From: Takakia lepidozioides
Lineage: Eukaryota > Plantae > Bryophyta
Direction of reading: 5' to 3'
Assembly (NCBI GenBank): GCA_030704615.1
Contig: CM060731.1
Coordinates: 52,514,001 to 52,578,000 of the forward strand
Length of the DNA stretch: 64,000 nucleotides
A program made the position numbers and the translations under genes. Under the pieces are notes generated by a model. That model had not been told where the DNA came from. It was given only the letters and a program-made list of their open reading frames with translations, and made no database searches. Shown piece after piece: positions 15,880 through 54,089 of the stretch (the stretch's first letter is position 1; each line of letters begins with the position of its first letter).

Positions 15880-17677
15880 CCACCACCTGGAAGTGACATG
15901 GAAGGTCCATGGTGACATTGTGAAAGCTATTGTAGGGTTTGTCATTCTGAACACCGCCCTGGTGGACATGTATGCCGAATGCAGGAGCATTAAAGATGCG
16001 GAGGTACTGTTCGACTGTGGCTCAACGAGATGTGGTGTCGTGGAGTGCAATGATCGCATTGGCAGCAAGGCAAGGATGTATGCATGATTTGTGCAGAGGT
16101 AGTGATAGCTGAAGGAGCAGGATAGAGTATGGGTCCATATTCATCCAAGAGGGTCGGATTTCAAGCTCCAGATTACCTATGGATCCCTATGGAAGGATAG
16201 CTACAAGAAACCTCCATGGGTAGATGGTTAGCTGGAAGCGGCAGCTGTAGCGGCACAATTGATAAAATCAGGCACCTCAACCATGACCACAGCTTTTGGA
16301 AGAGGATCAAGCGAGGGAGTCCACAATGCCTCTTCTGGCACTTATGGGCATGTGAAGATGCTTTATGAGGCAAGCAGACTGAAAGAGGCTCTACAAACTT
16401 TAAATCAAAGAGGCATTTTCAGTATATGTAGATACGTATGTGTGTCTCTTGCATAAGTGCATCAAGATGAAAGGCCTAGAAGTTGGAAAGCAGGTGCACA
16501 CTCACATTGTCCAAAGTGGATTCACACCGAACGTTTTTCTACTCAACAACCTTGTCAACATGTATGTTAAGGGGAGCATCATGGATGATCACCAAGTGTT
16601 CAACACAAAATGCCTCAACGATCTTTGATCATGTGGAATATAATGTTGGCGGGCTTACCAAGCATGGGCGTGGTACGAATGCTTTGGAGACCTGTGAGCA
16701 AATGATGCGCGAAGGGGTGAAGCCCAACCACGTCGCGTTTGTATATGTTTGCAATGCGTGTGCAACATTGAGCCCTGGACAAAGGGCAAAGAGGTGCATG
16801 GGGTATCATCAAAGCTGGAATTGTACCAAATGTCATTATGAACACTGCCTTGGCAGCTCTGGAAAAGGGGAAAGAGATCCATGGCGACATCTTCAGAGCT
16901 AGAATTGTACCAAATGTCATTCTGAACCATACCATAGCTTTGGAAAAGGGGAAAGAGGTCCATGGCGACATCTTCAGAGCTGGAATTGTATCAGATGTCA
17001 TTCTGAACAATACCCTGGTGAACATGTTTGCAAAATGTGGGTGCATCTAGGATGCAAAGGGAGTGTTCGACACTATGGCTGAATGAGACTCTGGTGTCAT
17101 GGAGTGCGATGCTTGCAGGGTATGCAAGGCAGGGACGTGGGATGGAGGCTTTGGAGAGCTATGAGCAAATGATGGGGGAAGCACATCATGTTTGTGTGCA
17201 TTTGCAATGTGCGTGCAAGCCTGGCAACCCCGGAGAAGGGCAAGAGGTGCATAGGGATATCATCAAAGCTGGAATTGTGCCAAATGTCAATCTGAACACT
17301 GCCCTGGCAGCTTTGGAAATGGAGAAAGGTGCATGGCGACATCTTCAGAGCTGGAATTGTACCAGATGACATTCTGAACAATACCCTGGTGGACATGTTT
17401 GCAAAATGTGGGTGCATCTAGGATGCAAAGGGAGTGTTCGACACTATGGCTGAATGACATATGGTGTCGTGGAATGCGATATATGCGTTTGTAGGGTATG
17501 CACAGCAGGGATGTGGAATGGAGGCTTTGGAGAGCTATGAGCAAATCATGGGGGAAGCACATCATGTTTGTGTGCATTTTCAATGTGCGTGCAAGCCTGG
17601 AAGCCCTGGAGAAGGGCAAGAGGTGCATAGGGATATCATCAAAGCTGGAATTGTGCCAAATGACAATCTGAACACTA
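15880..17677 (+). pseudogene. Degenerate PLS-PPR pseudogene with internal tandem duplications, interrupted by a retrotransposon
   Basis: LYEASRLKEALQTLNQRGI, GKQVHTHIVQSG, MFAKCGCI* and similar motifs with many frameshifts. About 16950-17290 is duplicated at about 17320-17677. Confidence 0.85.
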
Positions 17678-18901
17678 TGTCGTACGCATACATATCGCTA
17701 CACAACTACATCGCTGTCCAAAACCACACAACACATGTGCACACCACACACTAGTATACCACTAGTCCAACCACTAGGCTACAACTAGTCAGTCACTAGG
17801 CTGCCACTATGCTGCCCACTATGGCAGTTACTAGTCCACACAATAGAGGGGCTAGTGATAAAGAAGAAGAATACAAGCACAAGCTCATGCGAGCTCACAC
17901 AGCTGAAGCATAAACTCATGCATATATAACCTCATCACTCAAATACAAATCAAGCCAAGTGCACCCCACGCCATGGGGAATCCACACTACGGCGCCATAG
18001 CTAGGCGCGGTGAGGCTCAACTCGAGAAAGATGAGCCTCCCGCGCTTGCCGTGAAGATAACCACTCCAGGGCCTAAATCTGCCTTAACCCCTGGATTGAC
18101 ACTTGGGCCAATCCCAAATGTCAATATGTAAAAGCTAGCTATTTCCTAGCTAGTTTCACACTAGTGGTAAAATAACTTGACAGCTGTCGTACGCATACAT
18201 ATCGCTACACAACTACATCGCTGTCCAAAACCACACAACACATGTGCACACCACACACTAGTATACCACTAGTCCACCACTAGTCCAACCACTAGTCCAA
18301 CCACTAGGCTACAACTAGTCAGTCACTAGGCTGCCACTATGCTGCCCACTATGGCAGTCACTAGTCCACACAATCGCCCCCCTAGCTGGTGCTTAGGTCC
18401 CTCTAAGTTCAGGTAGCCACAAGATGTGATAGTTACCATAGCCTCACTAAGTCCTCAACCACTGTCCCTACTACACTCAAACTCGATAGATCAAGAGGCC
18501 GGGTGCAAGAGTTGCCCCATCGTTAGTCGTTGTCTTGCAACCTGTGAACGCTTGGGATCTCGTGTATTGACTCCTATAAGCTTGGCCTCCCATGTCTTGT
18601 TAGCTGCCTCCAGTCATATCCACTGCCACTATCCCAAGCAGTGTGGACACAACCAATCTCCGTCAGGAACCTTCTCAAGAGGTGATGTCAAGCATCCCAT
18701 ATGCCAACCCCTTGAGCATCAATCACACACCAGCATGGTGGCTGCCCCTTTGGCAGACCCACAGAGCATGCACCTCAAACCTGCAGGTACCACTGCCAAG
18801 TTTGGGTCAACTCTGCCATCGACATTGGGAAGGTGACATGACGCACAATTACGCACATGGTCCTTCCAAGTCATGCCATCCCGACCCTCCAAGATCAGGA
18901 C
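17678..18901 (-). mobile_element. 3' end of Gypsy copy 0 (INT C-terminus/PHD, PPT, B-gc-A-B repeats); the rest is lost after 29252
   Basis: Reverse complement of 28541-29239. B2 17678-17842, junction 17843-17855, A 17856-18182, gc, B1 18185-18372. The sequence resumes as tcctgaggg at 29244-29252. Confidence 0.9.
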
Positions 18902-19228
18902 TGTCAAGTTATTTTACCACTAGTGTGAAACTAGCTAGGAAATAGCTAGCTTTTACATATTGACATTTGGGATTGGCCCAAGTGTCAATCCAGGGGTCAA
19001 AGAAGATTTAGGCCCTGGACTGGTTATCTTCACGGCAAGCGCGGAAGGCTCATCTTTCTCGAGTTGAGCCTCACCGCGCCTAGCTATGGCACTGTAGTGT
19101 GGATTCCCCATGGCGTGGGGTGCACTTGGCTTGACTTGTATTTGAGTGATGAGGTTATATATGCATGAGTTTATGCTTCAGCTTTGTGAGTTCGCATGAG
19201 CTTGTGCTTGTATTCTTCTTCTTTATCA

Positions 19229-19240
19229 CTCGAGAAAGAT
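19229..19240 (+). promoter_or_regulatory. Putative self-priming PBS CTCGAGAAAGAT
   Basis: Perfect complement of 19052-19063 (ATCTTTCTCGAG) inside repeat A; no TGG tRNA-type PBS. Confidence 0.7.
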
Positions 19241-20684
19241 CAGCTCGTATCTATGAGTGCTAGATACGAGTTAGTTGTAGCACTTGTGGTTTTTGCTTGA
19301 GAATGAGAGAAACCAAGTTGTTATGCAAAGAGCACCGTGGAGCTCTTGGTTGTTAGAAGCGGAGGCGATGTGGGTTACGAGGTGGTAAACCTTGGCATTC
19401 GATCTTCAGCTTCAGAGATGAAAGCACCATACTGCAGGTAATTCCAGAGCACCTTGATGGTTTCAGATTGTGTACATGCATGAGCAAGCACGATTGGGAA
19501 GAGGACCAGTCAAGAGCAGGTTATAGTGGCTTTGGTGGCAAAGCTGAGAACTGGACTTGGGAATGCGAGCTTTCATTGTGTGAAGGATTGCAAGACCAAG
19601 CGAAAGGGCTGATTTGGCTTGGGGCAAATCAGTGCACTTTGTGGAGTATGGTGAGATTGGGTTTCAATCTCGAGCTTCAGCATTGAGAGGGCTCTTGTCA
19701 TGGCGAGAGCAGGGCTGGAACAGGAGCTAAGAGGTGCGGCAAGGCCATGGAATGTGCACCTAGGGTTTCAGAGCTTGGAAGAAGAGTTCTTGCACCACAA
19801 GAGCAGTGTCTTGTGGCTGGAAATGTAAGCCTTAGGGTTTCAGGAGCTTGGCAAAGGTTGTGGAGTGCTTAGTCTTGTCTTAGAGAGCATCAAGGAACCA
19901 AGGAGCCAAGATAGGGAGCTGATATCTCTTGTGTGAAGAGGTTGCATGTGTGGAGCATGCTATCAGCCTGGTGAAGGCTTGCACTTTCAGGTGTGGGAGT
20001 GCAAGAAAGGAAGGAAGGGGCTGGTTTCCCTGTAGGGCAAGTGGAGCATGCTTTCAGCCTGTTGAAGCTTGTATTTTCAGGTTTGTGGGTGCAAGAAATG
20101 AAGCAAAGGAGCTGATTCTCTTATGGTGAGAGTGGGGCATGTTTGGAGCATGCCTTCAGCCAATTGAGGCTCTTGTTTTCAAGCTTTAGAGAGCTAGAAC
20201 GGAAGGTCTAGGGCTGGTTTCCACTTGGAGTGAAAGAAAAACACTTGTAGGGCCTATGTGAGTTGGGGTTTCAACTTCAAGCTTGAAGAGAGCGCAACTC
20301 TTGAAGCAGCAGGTGTAGGGGGCTGGAATAGGCTCTAAGACTGATGCTATGGCCAAGGAGAGTGCTTGAATGAGCGCTCACAAGGGCTGGGAACCAGCAG
20401 GGCTTGGTTGTTTGCCATTGAGTTTAGTGGCGTGTTTGGGGAGGCTAAGTGAGAAAGAAGGCTTGGTTTGTGGCAACCACCTCATGGCTTAGGGCTACTA
20501 TGGTGGTGTGTGGGAGCCGAAAGAGCAAGAATACCTTGTTGATTTCCTCACAGCCGCCATAGCTCGGTGGAAAGAAGCCTAGAGTCCAAGAGACACAAAC
20601 CCTAGCTTGGCGTGGCTAAACCCCTTGGAGAAATGGCTAAACTGCCAGAGCGGCCATGGATGGGGTTGTGACGGGCTGTGCCCA

Positions 20685-21995
20685 TGGCCTTTGGGGCTGT
20701 GATGGGCTGTGAGGGGCTGTGACAGGCCGTGCCTGAGGCCTTTGAGGCTGTGAGGGGCTGTGAGGGGCTGTGACAGGCTGTGCCCATGGCCTTTGGGGCT
20801 GTGATGGGCTGTGAGGGGCTGTGACAGGCCGTGCCTGAGGCCTTTGAGGCTGTGACGGGTTGTGAGGGGCTGTGACAGGCCGTGCCTGAGGCCTTTGGGG
20901 CTGTGACGGGCTGTGACGGGCTGTGTCAGGCCGTGCCTGAGGCCTGTGGGGCTGTGAGGGGCTGTGACAGGCTGTGCCCGTGGCCTTTGGGGCTGTGAGG
21001 GGCTGTGATAGGCTGTGCCCAGTGGCCTGTGGGGCTGTGACGGGCTGTGCGGGGCTGTGACAGGCTGTGCCCATGGCCTTTGGGGCTGTGATGGGGTGTG
21101 AGGGGCTGTGACAGGCCGTGCCTGAGGCCTTTGAGGCTGTGACGGGCTGTGAGGGGCTGTGACAGGCTGTGCCCATGGCCTTTGGGGCTGTGATGGGCTG
21201 TGAGGGGCTGTGACAGGCCGTGCCTGAGGCCTTTGAGGCTGTGACGGGCTGTGAGGGGCTGTGACAGGCCATGCCTGAGGCCTTTGGGGCTGTGACGGGC
21301 TGTGACAGGCTGTGCCTAGTGGCCTGTGGGGCTGTGACAGGCTGTGCCCATGGCCTTTGGGGCTGTGATGGGCTGTGAGGGGCTGTGACAGGCTGTGCCC
21401 ATGGCCTTTGGGGCTGTGATGGGCTGTGATGGGCTGTGACCGGCCGTGCCTGAGGCCTTTGAGGCTGTGACGGGCTGTGAGGGGCTGTGACAGGCCGTGC
21501 CTGAGGCCTTTGGGGCTGTGACGGGCTGTGAGGGGCTGTGTCAGGCCGTGCCTGAGGCCTGTGGGGCTGTGACGGGCTGTGATGGGCTGTGAGGGGCTGT
21601 GACTGGCTGTGCCCATGGCCTTTGGGGCTGTGATGGGCTGTGAGGGGCTGTGACAGGCCGTGCCTGAGGCCTTTGAGGCTGTGACGGGCTGTGACGGGCT
21701 GTGACAGGCCGTGCCTGAGGCCTTTGGGGTTGTGACGGGCTGTGAGGGGCTGTGACAGGCCGTGCCTGAGGCCTTTGGGGTGTGAGGGGCTGTGAGGGGC
21801 TGTGACAGGCCGTGCCTGAGGCCTTTGAGGCTGTGACGGGCTGTGACGGGCTGTGACAGGCCGTGCCTGAGGCCTTTGAGGCTGTGACGGGCTGTGACGG
21901 GCTGTGACAAGCTGTGTGGGGCTGTGACGGGCTGTGACAGGCTGTGGCGAGCTGTGACGGGCTATGAGGGGCTGTGACAGGCTGTGCCCAGTGGC
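20685..21995. repeat. Tandem array in the 5' leader of copy 1: about 51-bp higher-order units built from GGGCTGTGA(C/G/T) 10-mers
   Basis: Units start at 20721, 20772, 20823 and so on; two main variants (cctgaggcc / cccatggcc). Confidence 0.95.
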
Positions 21996-22842
21996 CTGTG
22001 GGACTATGACGGCTGTGACCAGTGAGCTGTGTGGGCCTGTGCTGGTCTGTGGTGGCCCGTGTTGACCTGTGGACGGCCTGTGCTGACTCGTGGAGGCACT
22101 GGTGGACTGCCTAAGGACTGGCATGTGGTCTGGAAGGCCGAATTTTGAAGCTCGTGGAGGGCGGTTTGAGGAGTATCTTCATGATATTCCCATGGTCATG
22201 CAAGTGAGGGAAGAGAGGAGAGGAAGAGTGTTGGGATGAGGGCATGCTGGGGTTAGGCATTGCTTTAGCTTCTCTTCCTCGTAGTTTCCACCCTCTCATT
22301 AGACCAAGACCTTTCCGTAGGTGGAGGCAAGAGTCAGTCCGGGTTTGGGCTGGGGTGTCCTTGCAGGAGCAACACCATGGAGATGTTTTTGGTGTGGGGG
22401 AGTTGTCGTTCTGATTTCTTGTGTTTGGATCCCCTCCATACCTGCATGCTTGACTGTGCATCATGCTAGTTTTGTGTGGGCGCTTGTTTTTATAGGTGAT
22501 TGGTCCGGATTTGATCACCGGCCAGTCTTAGAGCATGTTGTCGATGGTGAGGTTGGGGTGATGACCAGCCAGACCATCAATGTTTCTCCTGTGGTGAGGT
22601 TGGAGGTGATGACCAGCCAACCATAGGAGTGCTTGCGGTGGATGCAGGTACAGGTGTAGGCTATGTTAGGAACTTAGTATTCCAAACCATAAGCCGCAAC
22701 AGGTTCTCTACCCGGTTACCTTGTGGAGAGGGGGTTAGGGACATGTTCATGACCGGTTGAGTGTCAACACGGAGGTGCCACTAGTTGTTGGGACAGTGCC
22801 GGTTCGAGCACTAGCGATACTAGTGGGTACACGAGACGAGGT

Positions 22843-25317
22843 GTGCGGTTTAGGCCACCTTCACCTCCTGTGTTTTCCACGGAAGGTTCTGATTCGGATT
22901 GTGAATCAGGAGGACTCATACCGGCGGTGCAAGTTGTTTCTTTGTCATTGTTGTGGGACACAATGGAGGAGATGTATGGAGCTACCAAGGGGCCACGAAG
23001 GTACTCTAGGGTGGTGGGCACCATCGAGTTGGATGATTTTATCCAAGAGTTTGATAGTTGGTGTGATTTGCAGCAAATGCGCAATCCACAACTATTTACG
23101 CCTTTCATGGCATGGAAGGGGCTGTTTCAGCACCTTGAGGGGCCGCCTATGGATGATTACCATGAGTTCAGGCGGGGGCATGAGGTTGAGATCGAGGAGT
23201 GGAGGATGTACTGGTCACCCAACTATGTCTCCACTAGGGGCACTAGAGCCACAAGGGCAGTGGCTGCACCTGCCGCTGCACCGGCAGCTTCAGCAAGTAG
23301 CAGAGGGACTAGTGGGACTGGTGGTACAGTAGCTACGATGTCCACCCAAGCCACTACCGCATCAGCACTAGTACCCGTACCTGCCTTCAACCCTGTTGTG
23401 GAGTTCTTCGAAGAGTTGAGATGGAACTACCAAGGGGTGAGGACAGAGAAGTTGCGGAGCTTGCAAGAGTTCCAACGGAAGCCGACCGAGAGCTTGAGGG
23501 AGGCTTTCACTCGCATGAGGCGCTTGATAAATGTAACCCAAGGGGTTACGGAAGCTCAGGCAGTCCAATTCTGGTATGGGATATTGGACAAGGAGCTGAG
23601 GAGAAGGGTGCGGGATGCAACTCTCCTACAAGTGGCCTAACCCACCTTAGCAAATGTGTTTTTGCTGGCAGAGCGGATAGAGCTCAACATGGTGGAGGAA
23701 CGAGTGGTCATGGTGGGATTTGCTAAGGAGACGCCACGGGGTAGTGGTGCTCCTAGCCAACCACTACCTCAACGTGCTCAAGGCAACAAGGGGGCTCAGG
23801 TGAAGCTCAGGGAAGGGCAGAGAGGACCTCAGATGCAGGGGTCTCTCCCTTCATTTGCTGGCCAACAACGGGCGGATGTGGTGTGCTGGACATGTGGAGG
23901 ACCCCATGTCAAGAAGGATTGTCCAGAGGGAGGCAAAGGGCCGGCACATGCACAGCCTGCACAGTTGCAGTGTGGGCATTGTGGCAAGCACGGGCATGGA
24001 GAGGCCCAGTGTTATGGTTTGCATCCTGAGTTGCGCCTAGGTCAGTTCCAAGGGAATAATGGTGGCCGGGGGCGAGGTGGAGCAGCCCAGAGAGGACGAG
24101 GTGGCCAGCCACGAGGTGCAGGCCAAGGCCAAGCTCAACATGGCCAAGGACGCGGAGGTCAGGGTGTTGACCAAGGCATGGCCAACCGGCTTCAACAGCT
24201 AGAGCAGAGGCTCGCTGCCATGGCTACAGCTCAGGTGGTACCGGCTCTAAGGCCGGATGGTCCACCTCCTGTTCCTGAGGGAGGAGATATGGGAGGCATG
24301 GGATTCATGTGTGGAGCAGCACTACCACTAGTGCAGGTGGAGTCTGCTGCAGCCGTGACTCGAGGAGCAGCACGAGTTCCTGAGCCACGAGGTACAGAGG
24401 TGGAGTTGGATCCACAGCGTGGGGAGGCAAGCCGTCAGGCTAGGCTTCCTCAGTCATTCACATTGGCGGAGACAATGTCGACGCCATCCATGGCACCTAG
24501 TTCTCGCCCGACTGTTACCGAGGCGGAGGTTACTATGCCATTGGGGAGAGCTACACGGGTAGCAGCACTACCTAGTGTTGCCAAGGCTACGGCAGCTAGT
24601 GTGCTGCTAAGAGCGGCCACATCTGTGTGCCAGGCTCCATTGTTCTCGGCTACCATGATTACGACGCCGGGGGTAAGACCAGCTGAGGTGTTCAGGCTGG
24701 CAGCTACACTCTATGAGAGTGGGGAGGTTACTTCATCTTCTGCGGAGATAGTAGGAGGTGTAGTGCCGGAGGGATCCTCGGATTTGAGGGTCAATACTGC
24801 CACGGCGGCGCCATGGCAAGCTGCAGCTACCAGGTTGATGGAGCTGCCAGCTAGGCCAGCCATTGAGCGCGCCATGGTGACACCTGGAGTTGTCATGTTA
24901 GACAACCAGGATGGCATTTTCTGTTTGAGTGGACCGGCAGGCAAGAGGTACCGGCCACTGCGGGTCTTGTTGGACTCGGGAGCTCAGCCATTGATGCTGG
25001 GCAGAGCTGCTATTGCAGGCTTGGGCCTCACGGAGGCGGATATGGAGCCTTGTCCTTTCCAGATACAGACGTCTCTGGGAGGATCGGAGCAGGCTCGGGG
25101 CATGACACGGCATGAGTTGGCTATCAGACTACGGCCGGATCACCCTACAGATGGCTCAGTGATGCGAGCCAAGGCCATTGTGACAGACGCAGTATCATAC
25201 GATGTCCTGGTTGGTGGGGCAGTGTTGTACCCCATGGGCTTCACCCTTGGGAGGAGTCAGCTTCCTATAGGCCTGCATGGCAGTCAGGGGAGGGCCGGCG
25301 TGTGCAGCTCCCTGTGA
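22843..25317 (+). pseudogene. gag (two zinc knuckles) plus aspartic protease of copy 1
   Basis: CWTCGGPHVKKDC and CGHCGKHGHGEAQC; LLDSGAQP protease motif at about 24967-24990; CAA>TAA stop at 23638; frameshift near 25250. Confidence 0.85.
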
Positions 25318-26927
25318 CGTTCATAGGAGGAGTTGCGGTTGCCCAGCGAGGCAAGATGCCGACACTAGCAGCATTCACAGCGGCAGTGAGTTGGCCTAGA
25401 GAGTTGCTTGAGGGCAATGCTCATTCAGAGGATGTACCACCTCCGAGAGAGCAAGATGACATGTATGGTATGGCGGAGTTGCCTACCATGGTTGCTCAGA
25501 CTCCATTGTGGGGCACGAGCAAGGATTTGCAGCGGGATGCTGATCGACGGGTGCAACAAGCCTGGGTGGAGGCTTTTGTACCGTCAAGAGAGGAGGAGAG
25601 TGCGGGGATTGCACCAGGACCACCTCAGTTGTCTCCATTGGACATCACACCTATTGTGTGGCAGTATCCGGATGAAGGCATTTATCTTCTGGACTTGTTT
25701 GGCGGGATCAGCACCGGATTGGCTGTTGTGTTACAGGCAGGTGTACGAGTTCGGCGTTACCTGTATGTGGAGAGGGATGAGACTGCACGACGCGTTTCAC
25801 TTCGCCATGTTGCTCAGTTGGTGCAGCGGTACCCTGAGTTGTTGTCGGTGTCTGCAATTTGTGGATATCAGCAGGCCTTGCCAGCAGACATTTCGTTGCT
25901 GGGGGCGCAGGATTTGGAGCGGGTTGGCTCCATTGATTTGGTAGTGGCAAGTTGGCCCTGCCAAGGGCATTTATCAGCCGGGCATGGCAATGGATTGCGA
26001 GACTCGAGGTTGGGTCTGTTTCGGGAGATAGTGCGGATTTTGCGCCACTTGCAGCTTCATCAAGCTGTATCTCCAGCATACATCTTGGAGAATGTGCCAC
26101 TGATGGGCGATTCTCGGGCCAGGGTGATGGCCAGTGTGCATCAAGTCCGGTCGTGGCTTGGGTCAGCAGTGTTGCTAGATGCAGCTACAGTGGGGTCACG
26201 GGCTCATCGTCCACGGCTATGGTGGACTAACTTGATGCCACCCGCACTGCTCAAGCGTGCATTTGATGGGGTGCAGTGGCCAGCACATCTCACAGTGGAT
26301 AACATTCTGGACACAGGGAGGCAGTCTCAGCGTGTGAGACACGATGACCGTTCGCCTTTGGCAGTGGTCAACAAGGTGGGTCAACCACGGGCAGCATTAC
26401 CTACACTGCTCAGCTTCCCAGGATCGCATGCTTTCCGGGATAGTGGACCTGGCCTCCTGTGGGATGCTCAGTTGCAGCAGTTAGTGGAGCCTAATGCTGA
26501 CGAGCGTGAGCGGGCAATGGGTTTTACCACTGGTACCACGGCGGTGTCGTCTCTTTCTGAGGCATCACGTCGTCAAGTGTTGGGGCAAGCAATGGATCTC
26601 AATTGCTTGACCTGGATTATCAGCTTGGCTCTGGCTGAGCAACGCAGAGTGCGGAGTACACTTCCCTCAATGGTCTCTCTGCCTACCGAGACGGTACAGG
26701 CAGTGAGTGGGGGCGAGCATGTGAGGACCACGGGGTGCATGCATCCATGGCACACGTGGGAGGTGCTCGAGGTTCAGAGGGAGTTGGCAGCCAAGGCGGC
26801 TGTGATGGATGAGGTTGGGGATTCTTCTCGGGTTGATGAGGTCCTCAAGGATGAGATGATGGGGCAGGATGAGGCCTTGTCATTGACTGAGCAGGCAGGG
26901 AGTACTGCTCAAGAGGTTGCGGCATAG
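25302..26927 (+). CDS. C5 cytosine DNA methyltransferase domain (DNMT3-like, non-permuted) inside the pol polyprotein
   Basis: Motif I LDLFGGISTG, II VERD, III ADI, IV SWPCQG (catalytic PC), VI ENV, VIII AHRPRLWWTN, IX ERERAMGF, X LGQAMD; core about 25680-26640. Confidence 0.9.
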   Translation: MQLPVTFIGGVAVAQRGKMPTLAAFTAAVSWPRELLEGNAHSEDVPPPREQDDMYGMAELPTMVAQTPLWGTSKDLQRDADRRVQQAWVEAFVPSREEESAGIAPGPPQLSPLDITPIVWQYPDEGIYLLDLFGGISTGLAVVLQAGVRVRRYLYVERDETARRVSLRHVAQLVQRYPELLSVSAICGYQQALPADISLLGAQDLERVGSIDLVVASWPCQGHLSAGHGNGLRDSRLGLFREIVRILRHLQLHQAVSPAYILENVPLMGDSRARVMASVHQVRSWLGSAVLLDAATVGSRAHRPRLWWTNLMPPALLKRAFDGVQWPAHLTVDNILDTGRQSQRVRHDDRSPLAVVNKVGQPRAALPTLLSFPGSHAFRDSGPGLLWDAQLQQLVEPNADERERAMGFTTGTTAVSSLSEASRRQVLGQAMDLNCLTWIISLALAEQRRVRSTLPSMVSLPTETVQAVSGGEHVRTTGCMHPWHTWEVLEVQRELAAKAAVMDEVGDSSRVDEVLKDEMMGQDEALSLTEQAGSTAQEVAA

Positions 26928-27232
26928 CAACCACGGGATGTGTCCTCTACCTCTAAGTCTGCTGGACTTAAGGTTGCAGTTACGAAGGGCAATTGGGAGC
27001 TTGACATTGGACCTATTGTCACTAGAGGAGAGAGACGACGTATACGGCGGTTCCTGAGGCTTACAGGAATTGCTTTGCCTCTCGTGCTACGGTGGATGAG
27101 CATGAGAGACATGTTCAGGTTGTGCATCGATTGGGTTTGGTCAATAGGGATGCGGATGGATTGAGTCGCAATCCATGCACGAGCCAGTAGGATGACACTG
27201 GAGCTCGGTGGCATGGTGAGACGGACGAGGAG

Positions 27233-28813
27233 ATGGTGCCGGGATGGCACGCATCTACATTTTTGTGTATCTTGGCATCGGGAGGTCAGATTGGACCTAC
27301 AACAGGGATGACTGTAGACGGAGTGTCTGAGGACCCTGAGGCTAGTGATGAGCTAGGTGGTGCCAGAGATATACATGAGGATTCGGCTGTGTTGGACTAC
27401 CTCCGCACGGGAGACACGGCAGCCATTGTGACTGCCAGGGAGAGGGATCGGATCCTGCAACGAGCCAAGAGGTTCAAGTGGGAGGGGATACACCTACTTC
27501 GAGTGTGGGAGGATGGTCGGGTGAGGATTGTGCCTCACCCCACACAGCGTGCACGGTTAGTGCGGCATGCCCATGAGGAGTTGGGGCATTTTGGAGTGCG
27601 ACGCACTCACAGTTTACTGCAGGGGCAGTATTGGTGGCGTGGTATGCATACAGAGGTGCAACAGTTCATGGCTAGGTGCATGGTGTGTGACAGGGTGCGT
27701 GCTTCATTCAACGCCCCTACACCACAGTTGCATCCTTTACCAATCATGGGATTGGGCTACAGGTGGAGTCTTGACTTCGCAGGACCGTTGCCACTGACTA
27801 TGCGCCACCACATATATGTGTTGGTGATGGTGGAGCACTTCTCCAAGTGGATTGAGTTGGTTCCATTGCCTGACAAGGCTAGTGAGGGGGCTGCGTATGC
27901 ATTCTTGGATCGTGTGCTTAGCCGATTTGGTGCTCCAGCTGAGGTACTCACGGACCAAGGGAGAGAGTTCTTGGGGGAGTTTCAGGCTTTGTGTGATAAA
28001 GCCTTGATAGACCACCGCACCACTTCTCGGGATCATCCTGAGGCCGATGGCTTAGCAGAGAGCGTTGTTCAGACGGTGAAGAGGGGTTTGCGCAAGTATG
28101 GCTTGCAGAAGGGACACCTAGGAGATTGGGATCTTCAGGTTCCTTGGTTAGCCATGGGCTACAGGTTCAGCAAACAAGCATCACTTGCCTCCTTCTCACC
28201 ATATTTCCTTCTCTTTGGCCGAGAGCCGGATTTGCCTGCAGCCATTCGTAGGGACACTGCTCAAGTCCTTAACCTTGGCGACCCGGACGTGTGGGTACGT
28301 GCATGTAATCAGCGTGCAGAGTTGTTCAAGAAAGTCATGCCCATGGCTTTTGAGAACCTTGCCATTGCACAGCACCGTGATACGTTGAGGTATGCCACTA
28401 TACGTGGTGGAGGATATCGTCCTGGGGTTCGGAGGTTTAGCCCTGGTGACTATGTTTATTTGCACCAGACTGCTCCTACGACTCTGGATGTTACTGCAGG
28501 GTGTGTTATTCTGAGGGTTCGAGAGGTGTTGCCCTCAGGGGTCCTGATCTTGGAGGGTCGGGATGGCATGACTTGGAAGGACCATGTGCGTAATTGTGCG
28601 CCATGTCACCTTCCCAATGTCGATGGCAGAGTTGACCCAAACTTGGCAGTGGTACCTGCAGGTTTGAGGTGCATGTTGTGTGGGTCTGCCAAAGAGGCAG
28701 CCACCATGCTGGTGTGTGATCGATGCTCAAGGGGTTGGCATATGGGATGCTTGACACCACCTCTTGAGAAGGTTCCTGACGGAGATTGGTTGTGTCCACA
28801 CTGCTTGGGATAG
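27233..28813 (+). CDS. Integrase (HHCC, DDE) with C-terminal PHD finger, copy 1
   Basis: HEELGH..CMVC, WSLDFAGP, LTDQGREF, LAE; CMLC..CDRC..WHMGC..WLCPHC (C4HC3). Confidence 0.92.
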   Translation: MVPGWHASTFLCILASGGQIGPTTGMTVDGVSEDPEASDELGGARDIHEDSAVLDYLRTGDTAAIVTARERDRILQRAKRFKWEGIHLLRVWEDGRVRIVPHPTQRARLVRHAHEELGHFGVRRTHSLLQGQYWWRGMHTEVQQFMARCMVCDRVRASFNAPTPQLHPLPIMGLGYRWSLDFAGPLPLTMRHHIYVLVMVEHFSKWIELVPLPDKASEGAAYAFLDRVLSRFGAPAEVLTDQGREFLGEFQALCDKALIDHRTTSRDHPEADGLAESVVQTVKRGLRKYGLQKGHLGDWDLQVPWLAMGYRFSKQASLASFSPYFLLFGREPDLPAAIRRDTAQVLNLGDPDVWVRACNQRAELFKKVMPMAFENLAIAQHRDTLRYATIRGGGYRPGVRRFSPGDYVYLHQTAPTTLDVTAGCVILRVREVLPSGVLILEGRDGMTWKDHVRNCAPCHLPNVDGRVDPNLAVVPAGLRCMLCGSAKEAATMLVCDRCSRGWHMGCLTPPLEKVPDGDWLCPHCLG

Positions 28814-29252
28814 TGGCAGTGGACATGATTGGAGGCAGCTAACAAGACATGGGAGGCCAAGCTCGTAGGAGTCAATACATGAGATCCCAAGCTCAAGTTC
28901 ACAGGTTGCAAGACGGCGACTAACGATGGGGCAACTCTTGCACCCGGCCTCTTGATCTATCGAGTTTGAGTGTAGTAGGGATAGTGGTGGAGGACTTAGT
29001 GAGGCTATGGTCACTATCACATCTTGTGGCTACCTGGACTTAGAGGGACCTAAGCACCAGCTAGGGGGGCAATTGTGTGGACTAGTGACTGCCATAGTGG
29101 GCAGCATAGTGGCAGCCTAGTGACTGACTAGTTGTAGCCTAGTGGTTGGACTAGTGGTATACTAGTGTGTGGTGTGCACATGTGTTGTGTGGTTTTTGGA
29201 CAGCGATGTAGTTGTGTAGCGATATGTATGCGCACGACAGGACTCCTGAGGG

Positions 29253-30815: not shown

Positions 30816-30818
<3 letters not shown>

Positions 30819-30908
<90 letters not shown>

Positions 30909-30920
30909 CAGAGAAAGAGA
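30819..30920. repeat. (GA)n microsatellite
   Basis: Direct reading. Confidence 0.95.
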
Positions 30921-30974
30921 TGATGAAACAAAACAAAACAAAAAGAGGTTGGGGGGGGAGTTACTGAGCAGAAG

Positions 30975-32560: not shown

Positions 32561-32569
32561 GAGAGGGAG

Positions 32570-37350: not shown

Positions 37351-38199
37351 CTCTCTTTTTAACTTTTTCTACCCCCTCTCTCCCTCTATGGGATTTGTTT
37401 TGTGAGCAGCACAAAAGAGAGGAGAGAGAGAGAGAGAGAGAGAGAGGGGGAGCGAGAGGGACAGATCAGGAAACAAAAAAAAAAAAAAAAAAAGATGGGA
37501 GGGGAGTGACTGAGCAGCTGCTGCTCAATCATCCCCCCCCCCACCCATTTTTTTTCATTGTTGTCCCCTCTCTCCCTCTGTCTCCCTCCTCGGAATTGGC
37601 CGGTTGCATCAGTGTTCTTTTCATGTTTTTCCATCTATACCGGATGGATTCTAAACAGTGTTTTCACTTGCCCTATAAAGTTTTTCTATCCATACCGGAA
37701 GATTTACCTGGGTGGACACTAAAATACCTCTAAAAAGGGTCTATAATTTTTCATTCCTCTTTTATTGACTTTCATCTATGTCATGGTTTTAGTCATGGTT
37801 ATCTAGAATTACCTACTTCTAGTTAACTAGGACATTTTAGATATTTATATTTATATTTTGTGTGTTGGGACTTCATTTGGTCTCACATGCCAAGTGAGGT
37901 GTTGAGCCTCACTTGAGACATGGAGATAGGTTTTCCCCTTGTGAGTGTTGAGGAGGCTCATCTTCTTGTAGTTGAGCCTCTATGAGCTTCTCTCACCTCC
38001 ATAGCTCTAGGTATTGAGAGGGAGTGTGTTGAGGGCTTTGTAGGGTGGATTCCTTTAGCAAAGGTGCCATTGGCTTGACTTAGTTTATGTGATAGAGTGG
38101 ATTTCACTTGGAAGGACTAGGGCTTGTTCTTCATGTGATTGCTTCATGCTTTGAGAGCTTTCATTGTCTTCTACTTCTCTCATTTCTCATCTCTTATCA

Positions 38200-38211
38200 C
38201 TACAAGAAGAT
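38200..38211 (+). promoter_or_regulatory. Putative self-priming PBS CTACAAGAAGAT
   Basis: Perfect complement of 37960-37971 (ATCTTCTTGTAG) inside repeat A. Confidence 0.7.
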
Positions 38212-39504
38212 CACCTTATGCTTGTGAGTGCGGAGTGTAAGGATTAGTTTTGCACTTGTATTTTAAAGAGGTTGAGAGCTAGGAGAATTTAGCTCTTGTA
38301 TCACAAGGCTTGCAAGGGGTTGCAAGGAAAGGTGCTCAAGTATTGCATGCACCAAGGAGTTGGAGAGCTTGAGAAGAAAGCTCTTGAGTCACAAGATTTT
38401 GCAAGGATTGTAAGGAGGAAGTCTTATGTGTGTGGAAGCATGGATTCTAGGGTTTGAGAATCCTTTCTATGCATTATGGAGTCGATGGTGTGCGCCATGG
38501 CTTGTGGAGAGTGACTAAAGGCTTGTTAGTGCTCATTTCACTATCAAGCTAGGGTTAAGCAAGTTCAAAGTGTGGATGTTGTGGAAGAGAAGCCAATGAG
38601 CTATATATGCTTGGGCTTGAAGACAACAAGGGCAAGCACTTAGAGAGCACTAAGAAGCTCAAGAGGTTTTGAAAGGGAGCATGTGAAGAAATCTTCCAAT
38701 CATGGTGGTGTGGAGCCAAGCTTAGGGTGCCATTGGAAGGGCTTGGAGAACATGTGGTGGGAAATCCTTGAAGGGAAATCATCATTCAATGTATGCATAG
38801 CTTCACCCTAACTATGTAATGTGACAAGAGGGGGAGGCAATACTTGGCTATTCATGCTCTTGGTAGTGCGAGCTTTGTGGTGGATAGTTGACCAAGCAAG
38901 TGGTGCATGTGTGAAGCATGCTCGCTTGAGTTTGTAAGTTCAAGTTTGAGAAGGGGAGCTCTTGAACTAGCAAGAGGTGAAGGCCTTTGAGATCCATTTG
39001 TGTGTGAAGTGGAGAGGTGTTGATTCATGTTATGATGAAGGAGAGCAACACATAGGCCAAGAGGTCATGAAACATGCATTCAAATGATCACGGGGAGCAC
39101 ATGGATGATGGATTGGTGCAAGACCCCGAATGAGGCATATGGCGTGAGAGTGGGATCCAAGGCGGATTGCTTGGGAGCATTATTGTAAGTGACAAGCATT
39201 GCTCCTACACATTGAGATAATTTGTGTTGATTTGGAGCAATTGTCAAGTGATGAGAAGACAAATGCATGATTGCTCGGCAATGGAGATATGGTAGTTTGC
39301 AATCAAATCCCAAGGACTAGAAGGGGGATTGATTTGGTGGACAATAACTTGCAAGTTGAGTTGGACCACTCTTGGTTGCACATTGGGGTGGAAGAGAGCA
39401 AGAAGATGCCTCTTATGACCACCTAGAGACCATATTTTTGCTTGAGTAGAAGCATAGAAGTCAAGGACTTGCATTCCAGCTCTTCATTACAAACCCTAGT
39501 AGTG

Positions 39505-40050
39505 TATGCTCAGACTATACCTATGTTAGTATACCAAACAGGAGCTTGTCCCTTTGACTATACCTCTGTTGAGGTATCACCATATGTGAACCCTAATGTG
39601 AGACTATACCTCTGTTAGTATACCAAACATGAGCTTGTCCATTTTACTATATCTCTATTGAGGTATCACCATATGTGAACCCTAATCAGCTCAGACTATA
39701 TCTCTGTTAGTATACCAAACAGGAGCTTGTCCCTTTTACTATACCTCTGTTGAGGTATCACCATATGTGGACCCTAATCAGCTCAGACTATACCTCTGTT
39801 AGTATACCAAACAGAACCCTCATTTTCAGACTATACCTCTGTAAAGGTATCATCAACATAAGGGACCCTAGCAGCCTCAGACTATACCTCTGTTAAGGTA
39901 TCAACAGTGAAAGGACTTACTGAAATTTAAGGGCCTTTGGAGGATTGTTTGGAAGATATTTGAGGGCCCTTAGAGGAGTATTTGGAGGATCTTTGGGGTC
40001 CTTGGAGGAGTGTTTGGAGGATCTTTGGGGTCCTTGGAGGACCCTTCGAG
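39505..40050. repeat. Tandem repeats in the 5' leader of copy 2 (about 91-bp gactatacctctgtt units, then about 33-bp tttggaggatc units)
   Basis: Direct reading. Confidence 0.85.
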
Positions 40051-40718
40051 GAGCTTTGGTGGACAATGTTGAAGAGCTCTTGAAGGATTGATTGAGGGAT
40101 ATTGAAGGATACTTGCCACGGCCATACAAGCGAGTGGATAGAGACAGGAGGGAGAGTGGTGGGATGAGAGCATTCTGGGGTTAGGAATTGCTTTAGTTTC
40201 TCTTCTCCATAGTCTTTCACCCTCTCTGTAGGCCAAAACCTTTCCGTAGGTGGAGGCAAGAGTCAGTCCGGGTTTGGGCTGGGGTGTCTTTGCAGGAGCG
40301 ACACTGTGGAGTGTTTTTGGTCTGGGGGAGTTGCTGTCTTGATTTTCTTGTGTTTGGATCCCCTCCACACCTGCATGCTTGACTGTGCGCCATGTTAGCT
40401 TTGTGTGGGCGCTTGTTTTCATAGGAGGTTGGTCCGGATTTGATCACCGGCCAATCCTAGAGTATGCTGTCGGTGGTGAGGCTGGAGTGATGACCAGCAA
40501 GACCACCAGTGTTTCTTCTATGGTGAGGCTGGGTTGATGACCAGCAGACCATAGGAGTGCTTGCGGTGGATGCAGGTGCAGGTACAGGTCTACGTTAGAA
40601 ACCTATTGTTCCTGCTTGAACCAGTAGCCGCAACAGGTTCTTTACCCGGTTACCTTGTAGAAAGTGGGGATTAGAGACAGGTTGACAACCGGTTGGGTTG
40701 TGAGTTTTCATCACGGAG

Positions 40719-42178
40719 GTGCCACCAGCTGCTGAGGGGAGTGCCGGTACAAGCACCAGCGATACTAGTGGGTACACAAGACAAGGTGTGCGGTTTAGGC
40801 CACTTTCACCTTCAGTGTCTTCTGAGGAAGGTTCAGACTCGGAGTCGGGAGGATTCTCGCCGAGGGTGCAAGTCATTTCTGTGCCATTGTTGTGGGACAC
40901 GATGGAGGAGATGTATGGAGCTACCAAGGGGCCACGTAGGTACTCTGGAGCTGTGGGCACCATCGAGCTTGATGAATTTATACAAGAGTTTGACATTTGA
41001 TGTGATTTGCAGCAAATGCGCAATCCACAACTGTTTACGCCCTTTATGGCATGGAAGGGGTTATTCCAGCACCTTGAGGGGCCGCCCATGGATGATTACC
41101 ATGAATTTAGGCGGGGACATGCGGTGGAGATTGAGGAGTGGCGAGAGTATTGGTCACCTAACTATGTCTCAATCACTAGAGGCACAAGGGCAGCGGTGAC
41201 ACCGACAGCTACACAAACATCTCCAACTATAAGCACTAGTAGTGGAACAAGTAGTGCCGGCACTTCTGTAGGTGGTACCAGTTCAAAAGGTGCTACTACT
41301 CCTCCTGCCACAATTACAATACATGTGCCTAGATTCAACCCGGTGGTGGAGTTCTTCCATGAGTTGCGGAGGAATTACCAAGGTGTACGGACAGAGAAGC
41401 TGCGAAGTTTGTAAGACTTCCAGCGCAAATCCAGTGAGAGCTTGCGAGAGGCCTACACTCGTATGAGGCGCTTGATAAGTGTGACCCAAGGGGTTACTGA
41501 AGCTCAGGCAGTCCAGTTTTGGTATGGAATTTTGGACAAGGAGCTCAAGAGAAGGGTGCGGGATACAACCCTATTACAAGCGGCCCAACCCACATTAGCG
41601 GATGTGTTTCTGCTGGCTGAGCGGATTGAGCTCAACATGGTGGAGGAGCGAGTTGTTACCATTGGATTTGGCAAGGACATGCCTGCACAAGGTGCAGCTG
41701 CCAGCCAACAGGTACAAGGGACTGCCCAACAGCGTGGTCAAGGGGGCAAGGTTGCCCAACCCAAGTTCTATGGAGCTTACACGGGACCTCAGGTGCAGGG
41801 GCCCGTGGCATCTTTTGTAGGCCAACAGCAACCAGGGGTGATATGTTGGACATGTGGAGGACCCCATGTCAAGAGAGATTGCCCAGATAGTGGCAGAAGG
41901 CAGGCACAAGCACAGCCTGCACAGTTGCAGTGTGGGCATTGTAGCAAGTATGGGCATGGAGACGCCCAGTGTTATGACTTGCACCCTGAGTTGTGCCCAG
42001 GCCAGTTCCAAGGGAACAATGGTGGCCGGGGGTGAGGTGGACCAGCCCAGAGAGGACGAGGTGGTCGGGCATGAGGTGCAGGCCAAGGGCAAGCTCAACA
42101 TGGCCAAGGACGCGGAGGTCACGGTGTTGACCAAGACATGGCCAACGGCTTCAGCAGCTAGAGCAGAGGCTCGCTGCC
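40719..42178 (+). pseudogene. gag of copy 2, with premature stops
   Basis: Homologous to 22843-24220; stops at 40998, 41412 and 42033. Confidence 0.85.
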
Positions 42179-44749
42179 ATGGCTACAGCTCAGGTGGTAC
42201 CGGCTCCCAGGCGGGATGGTCCACCTCCTGCTCTTGAGGGAGGAGATATGGGAGGCATAGGATTCATGTGCGGAGCAGCACTACCACTAGTGCAGGTGGA
42301 GTCTGCTGCGGCCGTGACTCGAGGAGCAGCACGAGTTCATGAGCCACGAGGTGCAGAGGTGGAATTCGATCCACGGCGTGGGGAGGCAAGCCGTCAGGCA
42401 AGGCTTCCTCAGTTATTCACATTGGCGGAGACAGTGTCGACGCCATCCATGGCACCTAGTTCTTGCCCGACTGTTACCGAGGCGGAGGTTACTATGCCAT
42501 TGGGGAGAGCTACACGTGCAGCACTGACACCTGCTACCAAGGCTAGTGCAGCCGGTGTGTTATTGGGGGCATCCACCTCTGTGTGTCAAGCCCCACTGTT
42601 CTCGGCAACCATGATTGCGACGCCGGGGGTAAGACCGGCTGCAGTGTTCAGACTAGAAGCAACACTCTGCGAGAGTGGGGAGGTCACTTCATCTTCTGCG
42701 GAGTTACTGCAAGGTGTAGTGGCAGAGGGATCCTCGGATTTGAGGGTCAAGACTGCCACGGCTGTGCCATGGCAAGCTGCAGCTGCCAGGTTGACGGAGC
42801 TGCCAGCTAGGCCAGCCTTTGAGCGCGCCATGGTGACACCTGGAGTTGTCTTGTTAGACAACCAGAGAGGCATTTTCACTTTGAGTGGACCAGCAGGCAT
42901 TGAATTGGCTACTGACACGCCAATCTTTCGGAGACCCTATAGATACAGTGACATGAAGAGGTTTTTGATTCAGATGAGAACTCAGGACCTTTGGGAGGCT
43001 GGTTTGGTGGAGCTATCTGGGGGAGAATATGCTTCAGCCATAGTGATGCCAACCAAGAAGGATGTATTTGGCAATTGGACGGAGAGACGTATGTGCGGTG
43101 ATTACCGGCCTGTAAATCGTCAGACCAAGTCCGATAGGTATACCATGCCAACACCAGAGGAGATCTTTGATGCCATTGGGCATGCCAAGGTCTTTAGCAC
43201 GTTGGATTTAAGATCCGGATATCACCAGTTGCCGATCAAGGAGGCGGATAAGCAAAAGACGGCATTCTGGGGGATCAATGAGCACGGGAAGGATTGCCTA
43301 TACCAGTGGCGGTTCTTACCATTTGGGCTTAAGAACACTCCGGCAGAGTTTCAGAGAGTCATGGACAGGATTCTAGCAGGGGTGGAGTTTGCTCGGTGCT
43401 ACATAGATGACATCATTATCTTTAGTGCTACGGTGGAAGAGCATGAGAGACACCTTCAGGGGGTATTTGAGCGCTTGAGGGCGCACGGATTGAAGTTACA
43501 TCCGGGAAAGTGCAAGTTTTTCCACAACCAGATTAAGTATCTGGGTCACATGATATATCCTGGAGGATTGGGGGTACAGCAGACTAAGGTAGAGTCCATT
43601 GCACAGGTTCCACGCCCCATGGATGTGAGCCGAGTTCGAGCTTTCATGGGGTTAGCAAACTATTATAGATGGTTTGTTAAGGGATTTAGTGCCATTGCAA
43701 AGGCTCTAACCAAGCTGACCAAGGTGGACCAGGAGTGGCAGTGGGAAGATGAGCAAGAACAAGCTTTTCAAGAGCTCAAGGCGAGGTTGACCTCGGCGCC
43801 CATCTTGAGACGACCTATCAAGGGGCGTCCTTTTCAGCTGCATACAGATTGGAGCATGCTGGGGCTTGGAGCGGTGCTCACACAGGTGGATGCTGAGGGA
43901 AGAGAGTTCGTAGTGGCTTATGCTAGCCGCTCGAACAACGTTGCAGAGTCTAAATATAGCTCATATGAGGGAGAATGCTTAGCTGCAGTGTGGGTCGTGG
44001 CACACTTCAGGTGCTATCTATACGACAATCTCTTCACCCTTGTCACGGATCACCAACTACTCAAGTGGTTGATGGAGTCAGACAAGCTTACGGGGAAGCT
44101 TGCACGGTGGGCACTCATCCTTCAAGAGTATGACTTTCAGGTGGTGCATCGACCGGGTTTGGTCAATCGCAATGCAGATGGGTTGAGTCGCAATCCATGC
44201 ACGAGCCAGCAGGATGACACTGGAGCTCGGTGGCATGGTGAGACGGACGAGGAGATGGTGCCCGAATGGCATGCATCTGCATTTCTGTGTATCTTGGCAG
44301 CGGAAGGCCAGGTTGGACCTACAACAGGGATGACTGTAGATCAAGTGTCTGAGGACCCTGAGGCCAGCAATGAGCAAGGTGGCGCCAAAGATATACATGA
44401 GGATTCAGTTGTGTTGGACTACCTCCGCACTGGAGACACTGCAGCCACTGTGACTGCCAAGGAGAGGGATCGGATCCTACAACGAGCCAAGACGTTCAAG
44501 TGGGAGGGGACACACCTGCTCCGAGTGTGGGAGGATGGTCGAGTGAGGATTGTGCCTCACCCAACACAGCGGGCACGGTTAGTGCGGCATGCCCATGAGG
44601 AGTTGGGGCATTTTGGGATGCGACGCACTCATAGTCTACTGCAGGGGCAGTATTGGTGGCGTGGTATGCACACAGAGGTGCAACAATTTGTGGCTAGGTG
44701 CATGGTGTGTGACAGGGTGCATGCTTCATTCAACGCCCCTACTCCATAA
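42179..44749 (+). CDS. gag tail fused in frame to reverse transcriptase, RNase H and integrase N-terminus
   Basis: RMCGDYRPVN, LDLRSGYHQ, PFGLKN, YIDD; RNase H TDWS..YASR..ECLA..TDH..NADGLSR; HHCC. Confidence 0.92.
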   Translation: MATAQVVPAPRRDGPPPALEGGDMGGIGFMCGAALPLVQVESAAAVTRGAARVHEPRGAEVEFDPRRGEASRQARLPQLFTLAETVSTPSMAPSSCPTVTEAEVTMPLGRATRAALTPATKASAAGVLLGASTSVCQAPLFSATMIATPGVRPAAVFRLEATLCESGEVTSSSAELLQGVVAEGSSDLRVKTATAVPWQAAAARLTELPARPAFERAMVTPGVVLLDNQRGIFTLSGPAGIELATDTPIFRRPYRYSDMKRFLIQMRTQDLWEAGLVELSGGEYASAIVMPTKKDVFGNWTERRMCGDYRPVNRQTKSDRYTMPTPEEIFDAIGHAKVFSTLDLRSGYHQLPIKEADKQKTAFWGINEHGKDCLYQWRFLPFGLKNTPAEFQRVMDRILAGVEFARCYIDDIIIFSATVEEHERHLQGVFERLRAHGLKLHPGKCKFFHNQIKYLGHMIYPGGLGVQQTKVESIAQVPRPMDVSRVRAFMGLANYYRWFVKGFSAIAKALTKLTKVDQEWQWEDEQEQAFQELKARLTSAPILRRPIKGRPFQLHTDWSMLGLGAVLTQVDAEGREFVVAYASRSNNVAESKYSSYEGECLAAVWVVAHFRCYLYDNLFTLVTDHQLLKWLMESDKLTGKLARWALILQEYDFQVVHRPGLVNRNADGLSRNPCTSQQDDTGARWHGETDEEMVPEWHASAFLCILAAEGQVGPTTGMTVDQVSEDPEASNEQGGAKDIHEDSVVLDYLRTGDTAATVTAKERDRILQRAKTFKWEGTHLLRVWEDGRVRIVPHPTQRARLVRHAHEELGHFGMRRTHSLLQGQYWWRGMHTEVQQFVARCMVCDRVHASFNAPTP

Positions 44750-45835
44750 TTGCACCCTCTTCCGATCATGGGATTGGGCTACAGGTGGAGTCTTGACTTC
44801 GCAGGACCGTTGCCACTGACCATGCGTCACAACAAGTATATGTTGGTGATGGTGGAGCACTTCTCCAAGTGGATTGAATTGGTTCCATTGCCTGATAAGG
44901 CTAATGAGGGAGCTGCGTATGCATTCTTGGATTGTGTGCTTAGCCGATTCGGTGCTCCAGCTGAGGTACTCACGGACCAAGGGAGAGAGTTCTTGGGGGA
45001 GTTTCAGGCTTTGTGTGACAAGGCCTTGATAGACCACCGCACCACTTCTCGGGATCATCCTGAGGCCGATGGCTTGGCAGAGAGAGTTGTTCAGACAGTA
45101 AAGAGGGGTTTGCGCAAGTATGGCTTGCAGAAGGGACACCTAGGAGATTGGGACCTTCAGTTACCCTGGTTAGCCATGGGCTACAGGTTCAGCAAGCAAG
45201 CATCACTTGCCTCCTTCTCACCATACTTTCTTCTCTTTGGCCGAGAGCTGGATTTGCCTACATCCATTCGCAGAGAAGCTGCTACAGTTCTTAACCTTGA
45301 CGATCCGGACGTGTGGGCACGTGCATGTGAGCAGCGTGCAGAGTTGTTCAAGAAAGTCATGCCCATGGCTTTCGAGAACCTTGCCATTGCACAACATCAT
45401 GATACGTTGAGGTATGCTACCATACGTGGTGGGGGTTATCGTCGTGGGGTTCGGAGATTCAACCCTGGTGACTATGTTTATCTGCAGCAGACTGCTCCTA
45501 CGACCTTGGATGTGACTGCAGGACGTACTATTTTGAGGGTTCGAGAGGTGTTGCCCTCAGGAGTCCTGATCTTGGAGGGTCGGGATGGCATGATTTGGAA
45601 GGACCATGTGCGTAATTGCGCGCCATGTCACCTTCCAAATGTTGATGGAAGGGTTGACCCAAACCTGACAGTGGTACCTACAAGTTTGAGGTGCATGTTG
45701 TATGGGTCTGCTAGAGGGGCAGCCACCATGCTGGTGTGTGATCAATGCTCTAGAGGTTGGCATATGGGATGCTTGACTCCACCTCTTGAGATGGTTCCTG
45801 ATGGGGATTGGTTATGTCCGCATTGCATTGGATAG
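44750..45835 (+). CDS. Integrase core plus PHD finger (second Cys mutated to Tyr), copy 2
   Basis: DDE motifs; CMLY..CDQC..HMGC..CPHC; separated from the upstream ORF by a TAA at 44747. Confidence 0.9.
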   Translation: MHPLPIMGLGYRWSLDFAGPLPLTMRHNKYMLVMVEHFSKWIELVPLPDKANEGAAYAFLDCVLSRFGAPAEVLTDQGREFLGEFQALCDKALIDHRTTSRDHPEADGLAERVVQTVKRGLRKYGLQKGHLGDWDLQLPWLAMGYRFSKQASLASFSPYFLLFGRELDLPTSIRREAATVLNLDDPDVWARACEQRAELFKKVMPMAFENLAIAQHHDTLRYATIRGGGYRRGVRRFNPGDYVYLQQTAPTTLDVTAGRTILRVREVLPSGVLILEGRDGMIWKDHVRNCAPCHLPNVDGRVDPNLTVVPTSLRCMLYGSARGAATMLVCDQCSRGWHMGCLTPPLEMVPDGDWLCPHCIG

Positions 45836-54070: not shown

Positions 54071-54089
54071 TTTTTAACTTTTTCTGCAG

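Follow-up and report, generated by a model that had tools for sequence, protein, structure and literature searches.

[quoted passage not shown] Self-priming has been predicted for 12% of plant elements, 83% of Tcn1 and 89% of TAR, where at least 10 complementary bases beginning 0-5 nt past the LTR were taken as the criterion (PMC6317226); for SM-Tcn1, the relevant section of PMC2864245 records that no priming signal was found. KnitGypsy-Dnmt3 of Klebsormidium nitens is a gypsy Pol with a C5 methyltransferase and was termed LTR Gypsy (PMC5890265, whose main text contains none of 'primer binding', 'target site' or 'PHD'). Split direct repeats have been tied to tyrosine-recombinase elements (PMC8557442, PMC4157794), and the repeat order A1-B1-A2-B2 is that of PAT, TOC1, Ngaro, Viper and SymbioDIRS (PMC4157794, PMC5890265). 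A PHD-bearing Chlamydomonas Gypsy with LTR subparts is presented in PMC9940879, where the passages on this element do not describe a split-repeat layout.

The window analysed here (64,000 nt of Takakia lepidozioides) contains two elements with end repeats, A and B, of unusual order (Table 1). As in Tf1 and Tf2 of S. pombe, Tj1 of S. japonicus and the Tf1/sushi group, these Ty3/gypsy elements have a PBS complementary to a short word in their own 5' repeat. An earlier note on this DNA had claimed that the 12 nt past A are complementary to a 12-mer inside A in both subfamilies. We located all four 12-mers and found the positions and the pairing to be exact, with each PBS beginning 1 base past the terminal CA of A. 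The complement reaches 13 nt if the A of CA is counted and ends there; at 12-13 nt, it falls within the definition of self-priming by at least 10 nt. The inner 12-mer recurs at 18021 (minus strand) and at 46361. The same note had stated that the sequences differ while pairing is kept, and this was borne out: the subfamily 12-mers differ at four positions, and 4/4 are double changes that keep Watson-Crick pairs. Duplex energies were −18.3 and −16.7 kcal/mol for the cognate pairs vs −4.1 and −7.7 kcal/mol for the swapped pairs. Matches of at least 12 nt beginning 0-5 nt past A arose in 3/20000 and 39/20000 dinucleotide shuffles of A, and the same match test on interior windows gave 0/1317 per element. 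We consider it highly probable that the 12-mer pair is the self-priming signal of a Ty3/gypsy retrotransposon that uses its own 5' RNA end as primer.

Table 1. Features of the two elements and their immediate surroundings, in window positions.
Feature	Position	Strand	Remarks
Related element, 3' end including integrase end	17678..18897	-	Element 1 is inserted into it
Repeats of this minus-strand relative	B1 18374-18185, GC, A2 18182-17856, 12-nt insert, B2 17843-17678	-	
Element 1, Ty3/gypsy type, form A-internal-B	18902..29239	+	Ends TGTC...GACA
Repeat A, 5' copy, TGTC...CA, 327 nt	18902..19228	+	10/327 differences vs inverted copy 17856-18182
Hairpin AGGCTCA / 12-nt loop / TGAGCCT	19046..19071	+	Straddles predicted start; z −3.55 (window across +1)
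Predicted self-primer ATCTTTCTCGAG	19052..19063	+	Complementary to PBS of element 1
GGCTTGACTT, predicted partner of bases right after primer (second helix)	19128..19137	+	Fold from +1; conserved alignment block
GAGTGATGAGG, predicted partner of A's end (third helix)	19144..19154	+	Fold; GTGAT in element 2 too
Primer-binding site CTCGAGAAAGAT	19229..19240	+	Adjoins CA; without TGG
Stem-loop past PBS, loop TGAGTGC	19242..19272	+	z −2.77 and −1.97
Gag C-terminal part, two zinc-knuckle-like motifs (by eye) and aspartyl-protease motif	23641..25317	+	Translation
C5 cytosine DNA methyltransferase domain	25116..26927	+	PF00145, E 9.8e-9
Integrase (zinc domain, rve core) and C-terminal PHD finger	27191..28813	+	Element 1
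Polypurine-tract-like run preceding repeat B	29063..29072	+	Sequence
Repeat B of element 1, GACA end	29073..29239	+	
Element 2, form A1-internal-B1-A2-B2	37779..46686	+	4-bp duplication TCTA at 37775-37778 and 46687-46690
Repeat A1, 421 nt	37779..38199	+	1/421 difference vs A2
Predicted self-primer ATCTTCTTGTAG	37960..37971	+	Element 2
Primer-binding site CTACAAGAAGAT	38200..38211	+	Element 2
RT, RNase H, integrase, PHD coding region, broken by stop	42131..45835	+	Element 2
B1 46092-46177, spacer GC, A2 46180-46600, B2 46601-46686	46092..46686	+	

Relatives were collected by an integrase search of metagenome contigs, which yielded 80 loci that formed 53 clusters when grouped at 97% identity; no locus came from viral contigs. 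Seventeen metagenome rows contained A and PBS and fell into three families (M1, M2, M3), with three row pairs sharing an insertion site. Because a de novo primer/PBS scan returned many background matches in AT-rich DNA, only position-defined pairing tests were used: by a fixed rule, the 12 nt following A were taken as PBS and the best partner in A was located. This partner fell on the aligned primer site in 14/17 rows and elsewhere in three (L006, L051, L080). Shuffles matched as well in at most 16/2000 cases for 9/17 rows, in 2-3% for two and in >10% for six, the poorly scoring copies being decayed and T-rich.

Pairing was retained in these three further families with different sequences, which extends the covariation seen in the window. 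In one well-preserved copy from each of the five families, 12, 12, 12, 11 and 12 of 12 positions were Watson-Crick pairs, compared to 4-8 of 12 for non-cognate primer/PBS pairs of the same families. Relative to element 1, the other four families carried 4, 8, 4 and 6 double changes. The implied primer length was 12-14 nt across families (nt 13-14 in the relatives), and pairing stopped at the same 5' A in 4/5 families. In an RT tree of 128 rows, built by a quick method and with no Tf1 or Tcn1 reference labelled, the window RT grouped with M2/M3 and liverwort proteins (SH-aLRT 98) and M1 formed a separate branch, so the probable self-priming signal occurs in two separate branches. A distant GC-rich relative (L043, 19-360) has one 11-nt complement (178 and 350) in its first 5.2 kb, with the site right after CA, ~330 nt past TGTC, and the 3' end missing. 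This is a possible sixth family, at an estimated ~0.5 such matches expected by chance.

The first base of all five primers is an A preceded by a pyrimidine. TATA boxes usually lie at about −30. In the relatives, we found TATAAAA 32 nt upstream of the primer's first A in M1 (L076), TATA-like GATATAAT 31 nt upstream in M3 (L038) and TATA-like GATAAATA ~31 nt upstream in M2 (L078); overall, the distance from TATA-like box to the partner's first A was about 30-33 nt in the three metagenome families. Neither window element has a TATA box at −30, and their predicted +1 positions, 19052 and 37960, were therefore transferred from the TATA spacing in the relatives. The main reading of the earlier note, tRNA-independent Tf1-like self-priming with a predicted start at the ATC, is supported by the pairing in three more families, by these TATA-like boxes and by the PBS themselves, none of which (0/19 rows) has TGG within its first 8 nt. 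One further locus, without its 5' end (L058, 11745-12072, family M4), has GATAATA ~30 nt upstream of a candidate primer in an A copy.

The same note had placed the 12-mer in the loop of a hairpin common to both subfamilies. The hairpin is indeed common to both, with AGGCTCA/TGAGCCT at 19046/19065 and 37954/37973, and the loop placement holds for 11/12 nt; the first A fails, as it is the last base of the 5' arm. This geometry allows another reading, in which a longer transcript begins upstream in A and the primer is excised from the hairpin loop by two cuts. The hairpin is kept in both window subfamilies (z across the predicted start, −3.55 and −2.71) with invariant arms and a changing loop, and the missing TATA boxes of the window elements also fit an upstream start. 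Such a z-score is not unique to the start: in element 2, a control window placed 50 nt further upstream gave −3.88. A stable fold lies across +1 in 4/5 families, but the primer is inside the loop solely in the window families: it overlaps a hairpin arm in M2 and M3, and three M1 copies gave no stable hairpin there (z +1.02, −0.05 and −0.32). The common 5' end of the pairing in 4/5 families also argues against excision. When upstream bases were added to the folds, the element 1 hairpin outcompeted the PBS helix (0.56 vs 0.40), and the 3' arm has a second, downstream partner in a block identical in both subfamilies. The proposal that the primer is cut out of the loop, raised in the earlier note, is thus poorly supported, and we regard it as very unlikely.

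Under self-priming from a start at the 12-mer, folds from +1 predicted a three-way junction in both elements. Helix 1 is primer:PBS (probability 0.94-1.0 at positions 2-7 in both elements), helix 2 joins the post-primer bases GUUGAGCC to GGCUUGAC, and helix 3 joins the end of A to GUGAU. The GGCTTGACTT block, which supplies the downstream partner, is identical at 38072-38081 in element 2, and a similar helix follows the primer in L035 and L038. For element 1, the fold of lowest energy has primer nt 10-13 paired with GGCUUGACUU (PBS pairing there has probability ≤0.02), so full PBS pairing would need a branch shift before the cut. Because the 5' arm of the hairpin lies upstream of the predicted +1, the hairpin would be present only in the 3' RNA copy of A, in folds of which it does form; our guess is that it may hide the second primer copy there. 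Past the PBS of element 2, TGAGTGC recurs at about 38214-38242 with the stem around it paired differently.

A duplex of this kind might merely close a structured 5' leader, serving packaging, dimerisation or translation, while a host tRNA fragment or other RNA primes in trans. Half-tRNA primers without TGG do occur in plant copia lineages, but half-tRNA priming was found only in Ty1/copia elements (PMC6317226). Five unrelated PBS would call for five different trans primers, every one of which would also have to match the repeat of the element itself, and the helix occupies exactly the bases that a trans primer needs. We judge priming in trans to be very unlikely. ARAGORN detected no tRNAs in the window or in the 80 loci, and there were no Rfam matches. 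Pyrimidine-rich words and decayed relatives, several of which lack significance of their own, speak for a chance match or a one-off inverted duplication inherited by both subfamilies; the shuffle rates and the compensated changes in five families largely refute this, and it can hardly be true.

In the self-priming model, transcription would begin at the A of the inner 12-mer, and the first 12 nt of the RNA would form pairs with the site adjoining the CA of A, the three-way junction keeping both ends together. As in Tf1, the element's own RNase H would likely cut past nt 12 and free a 3'-OH from which minus-strand DNA is started; with the cut there, DNA synthesis would begin opposite the A of CA. 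An RNase H domain is present in element 2; primer cleavage is predicted. Because the primer would be copied back into the PBS at every round, the two would stay in step. The earlier note's statement that Tf1-type elements prime from their own 5' 11 nt agrees with the account in PMC7175516. Unlike Tf1, the elements described here would use 12-14 nt plus one pair instead of 11 nt, with cleavage predicted; they carry a PHD finger and a cytosine methyltransferase, and their repeats are arranged A...B-A-B and not as two equal LTRs.

Element 1 is flanked by the 4-bp duplication GGAC (18898-18901 and 29240-29243). It lacks the RT/RNase H region present in element 2, and element 2 lacks the protease/methyltransferase region present in element 1 (tblastn gaps); since each lacks a block of the other, both are defective. 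The Asp_protease_2 match in the Gag part of element 1 (E 0.026) was weaker than the cut-off. For the element 2 RT, the best solved match was Ty3 RT (E 6.6e-68). The leader of element 1 holds an array of 51-bp repeats (20532-22061), and shorter repeats occur at ~39500-39900 in element 2. In the minus-strand relative, the 12-nt insert at the A2|B2 join (17844-17855) opens with the first two PBS bases and resembles the 12 nt before B1. Elsewhere in the window, PPR genes, which lie on both strands and point to a land-plant host, and numerous decayed PPR fragments occupy 2131-9266, about 15900-17680 and 58980-59145, and loose contig ends suggest that the PPR fragments are repeated in the genome. 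A PAP_fibrillin domain fragment lies at 12873-13388 (minus strand). A non-coding repeat family containing GA runs, poly-A/poly-G and near-palindromic segments is present in several copies at ~30800-37780 and 46690-55400, and element 2 sits within one such copy.

The lineage fits a Ty3/gypsy relative of KnitGypsy-Dnmt3 with a cytosine methyltransferase and a PHD finger; as in KnitGypsy-Dnmt3, the gypsy Pol of element 1 includes a C5 methyltransferase (PF00145). The nearest named relatives by RT-RNase H came from Calypogeia (78%) and Marchantia (76%, with DNA_methylase), followed by Klebsormidium (51-56%) and Closterium, and a methyltransferase domain as in element 1 is also found in the Marchantia and Closterium relatives. 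In the RT tree, the element stood among PHD/methyltransferase rows, apart from four unnamed chromodomain rows (no row was labelled Tcn1 or Tf1). Target duplications in the 12 complete relatives were 4 bp and exact in six, had one mismatch in two and were absent in four.

Other assignments were considered and rejected. Plant Tcn1 chromoviruses (REXdb) are likewise gypsy elements of non-seed plants predicted to self-prime, but Tcn1 has 5-bp duplications (100%) and a chromodomain (100%), whereas the window elements have 4-bp duplications and no chromodomain match, the PHD finger being followed by a stop. Phygy/Selgy, non-chromoviruses with 4-bp target duplications, use a tRNA-Trp or tRNA-Ala PBS, whereas TGG is absent here, and the targets GGAC and TCTA differ from the NCGN of Phygy. 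Elements of the DIRS order (PAT, Ngaro) share the A1-B1-A2-B2 order, as do TOC1, Viper and SymbioDIRS, but theirs is a tyrosine recombinase; here we found a DDE integrase (rve) with 4-bp target duplications, and no tyrosine recombinase match in the ORFs scanned.

We next consider how the split repeats are arranged. Element 2 reads A1-PBS-internal-polypurine tract (PPT)-B1-GC-A2-B2, with TCTA outside A1 and B2. In three contigs of a public run, 37774 is connected to 46690 across three other letters, and this empty-site joint confirms that B2 belongs to the insertion. With B beginning immediately past the PPT and A ending at the PBS, we infer that B+A is the functional LTR. Among 3' ends at distinct sites, read from locus ends and clusters, 19 end B-A-B and 15 end B plus flank; the remaining loci are cut off or without B, and none ends B-A plus flank. 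A B-like end before A1 was seen in 0/12 complete relatives. The B1 and B2 copies of element 2 differ at 3/86 positions and the A pair at 1/421, and the A pair and B pair may not have been equalized in the same step.

The B|A junctions match a GACA-NN-TGTC palindrome in 17/19 cases, all with a 2-nt spacer; in element 2 the palindrome is GACAGCTGTC. The A2|B2 join is CA|TTGTG in element 2 and is exact there, as it is in the deepest such joint among the public-run matches listed. The 12 A2|B2 joints of M1 comprised four exact joints, four with added AT, one with A, one with ATTC, one ambiguous and one with PBS and leader. The short M1 inserts match the start of the PBS, which is what primer remaining at a cDNA end would leave, although A and AT match the start of B too. 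An aberrant joint in L061 (11050-11683) has the PBS and ~290 nt of leader lying between the 3' A copy and B2.

These arrangements led us to a tentative proposal, to which we give a little less than even weight: a non-chromovirus green-plant gypsy lineage self-primes and integrates by a permuted route from joined cDNA. Finished cDNA would have its two ends joined, CA to post-PPT start, with residual primer bases sometimes kept at the joint. The DDE integrase would then make a staggered cut at the internal GACA-NN-TGTC palindrome, as at an IS3-type circle junction, which would yield A-internal-B-A-B and A-internal-B insertions with 4-bp duplications. At IS3/IS911 circle junctions and foamy-virus LTR-LTR junctions, a DDE enzyme opens two abutted ends with a short spacer. 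The 2-nt spacer between B and A ends resembles these systems; unlike them, the palindrome lies inside a long repeat and not at the end-to-end joint of the cDNA, and its cleavage is predicted. A plain closed two-LTR circle as sole intermediate is doubtful, as it would also give the A-B-A-internal-B form, which 0/12 complete relatives show. The permuted route itself leaves the absence of that form unexplained, and the B-only ends could instead stem from B1-B2 recombination.

Self-priming as such is already known (Tf1, Tj1, Tcn1, TAR); what differs is the lineage, with its unusually ordered end repeats. In the literature searched, outside subscription journals and Repbase, we found no report of self-priming or split repeats in a KnitGypsy-Dnmt3-like lineage, and no split-repeat layout in any integrase-encoding element. 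LTR finders that expect two equal terminal repeats would likely mis-call this lineage, which may be under-annotated in non-seed plants and algae. Proof of self-priming exists for Tf1 only, with predictions for a few clades; the compensated primer/PBS pairs of the five families amount to natural covariation and give exact predictions for start and cut. If the proposal is true, this would possibly be a third origin of self-priming in plants, and an LTR retrotransposon that normally integrates from joined or circular cDNA bearing internal attachment sites. If its integrase opens joined cDNA, the lineage would bear on circular retroelement DNA as a normal substrate of integration.
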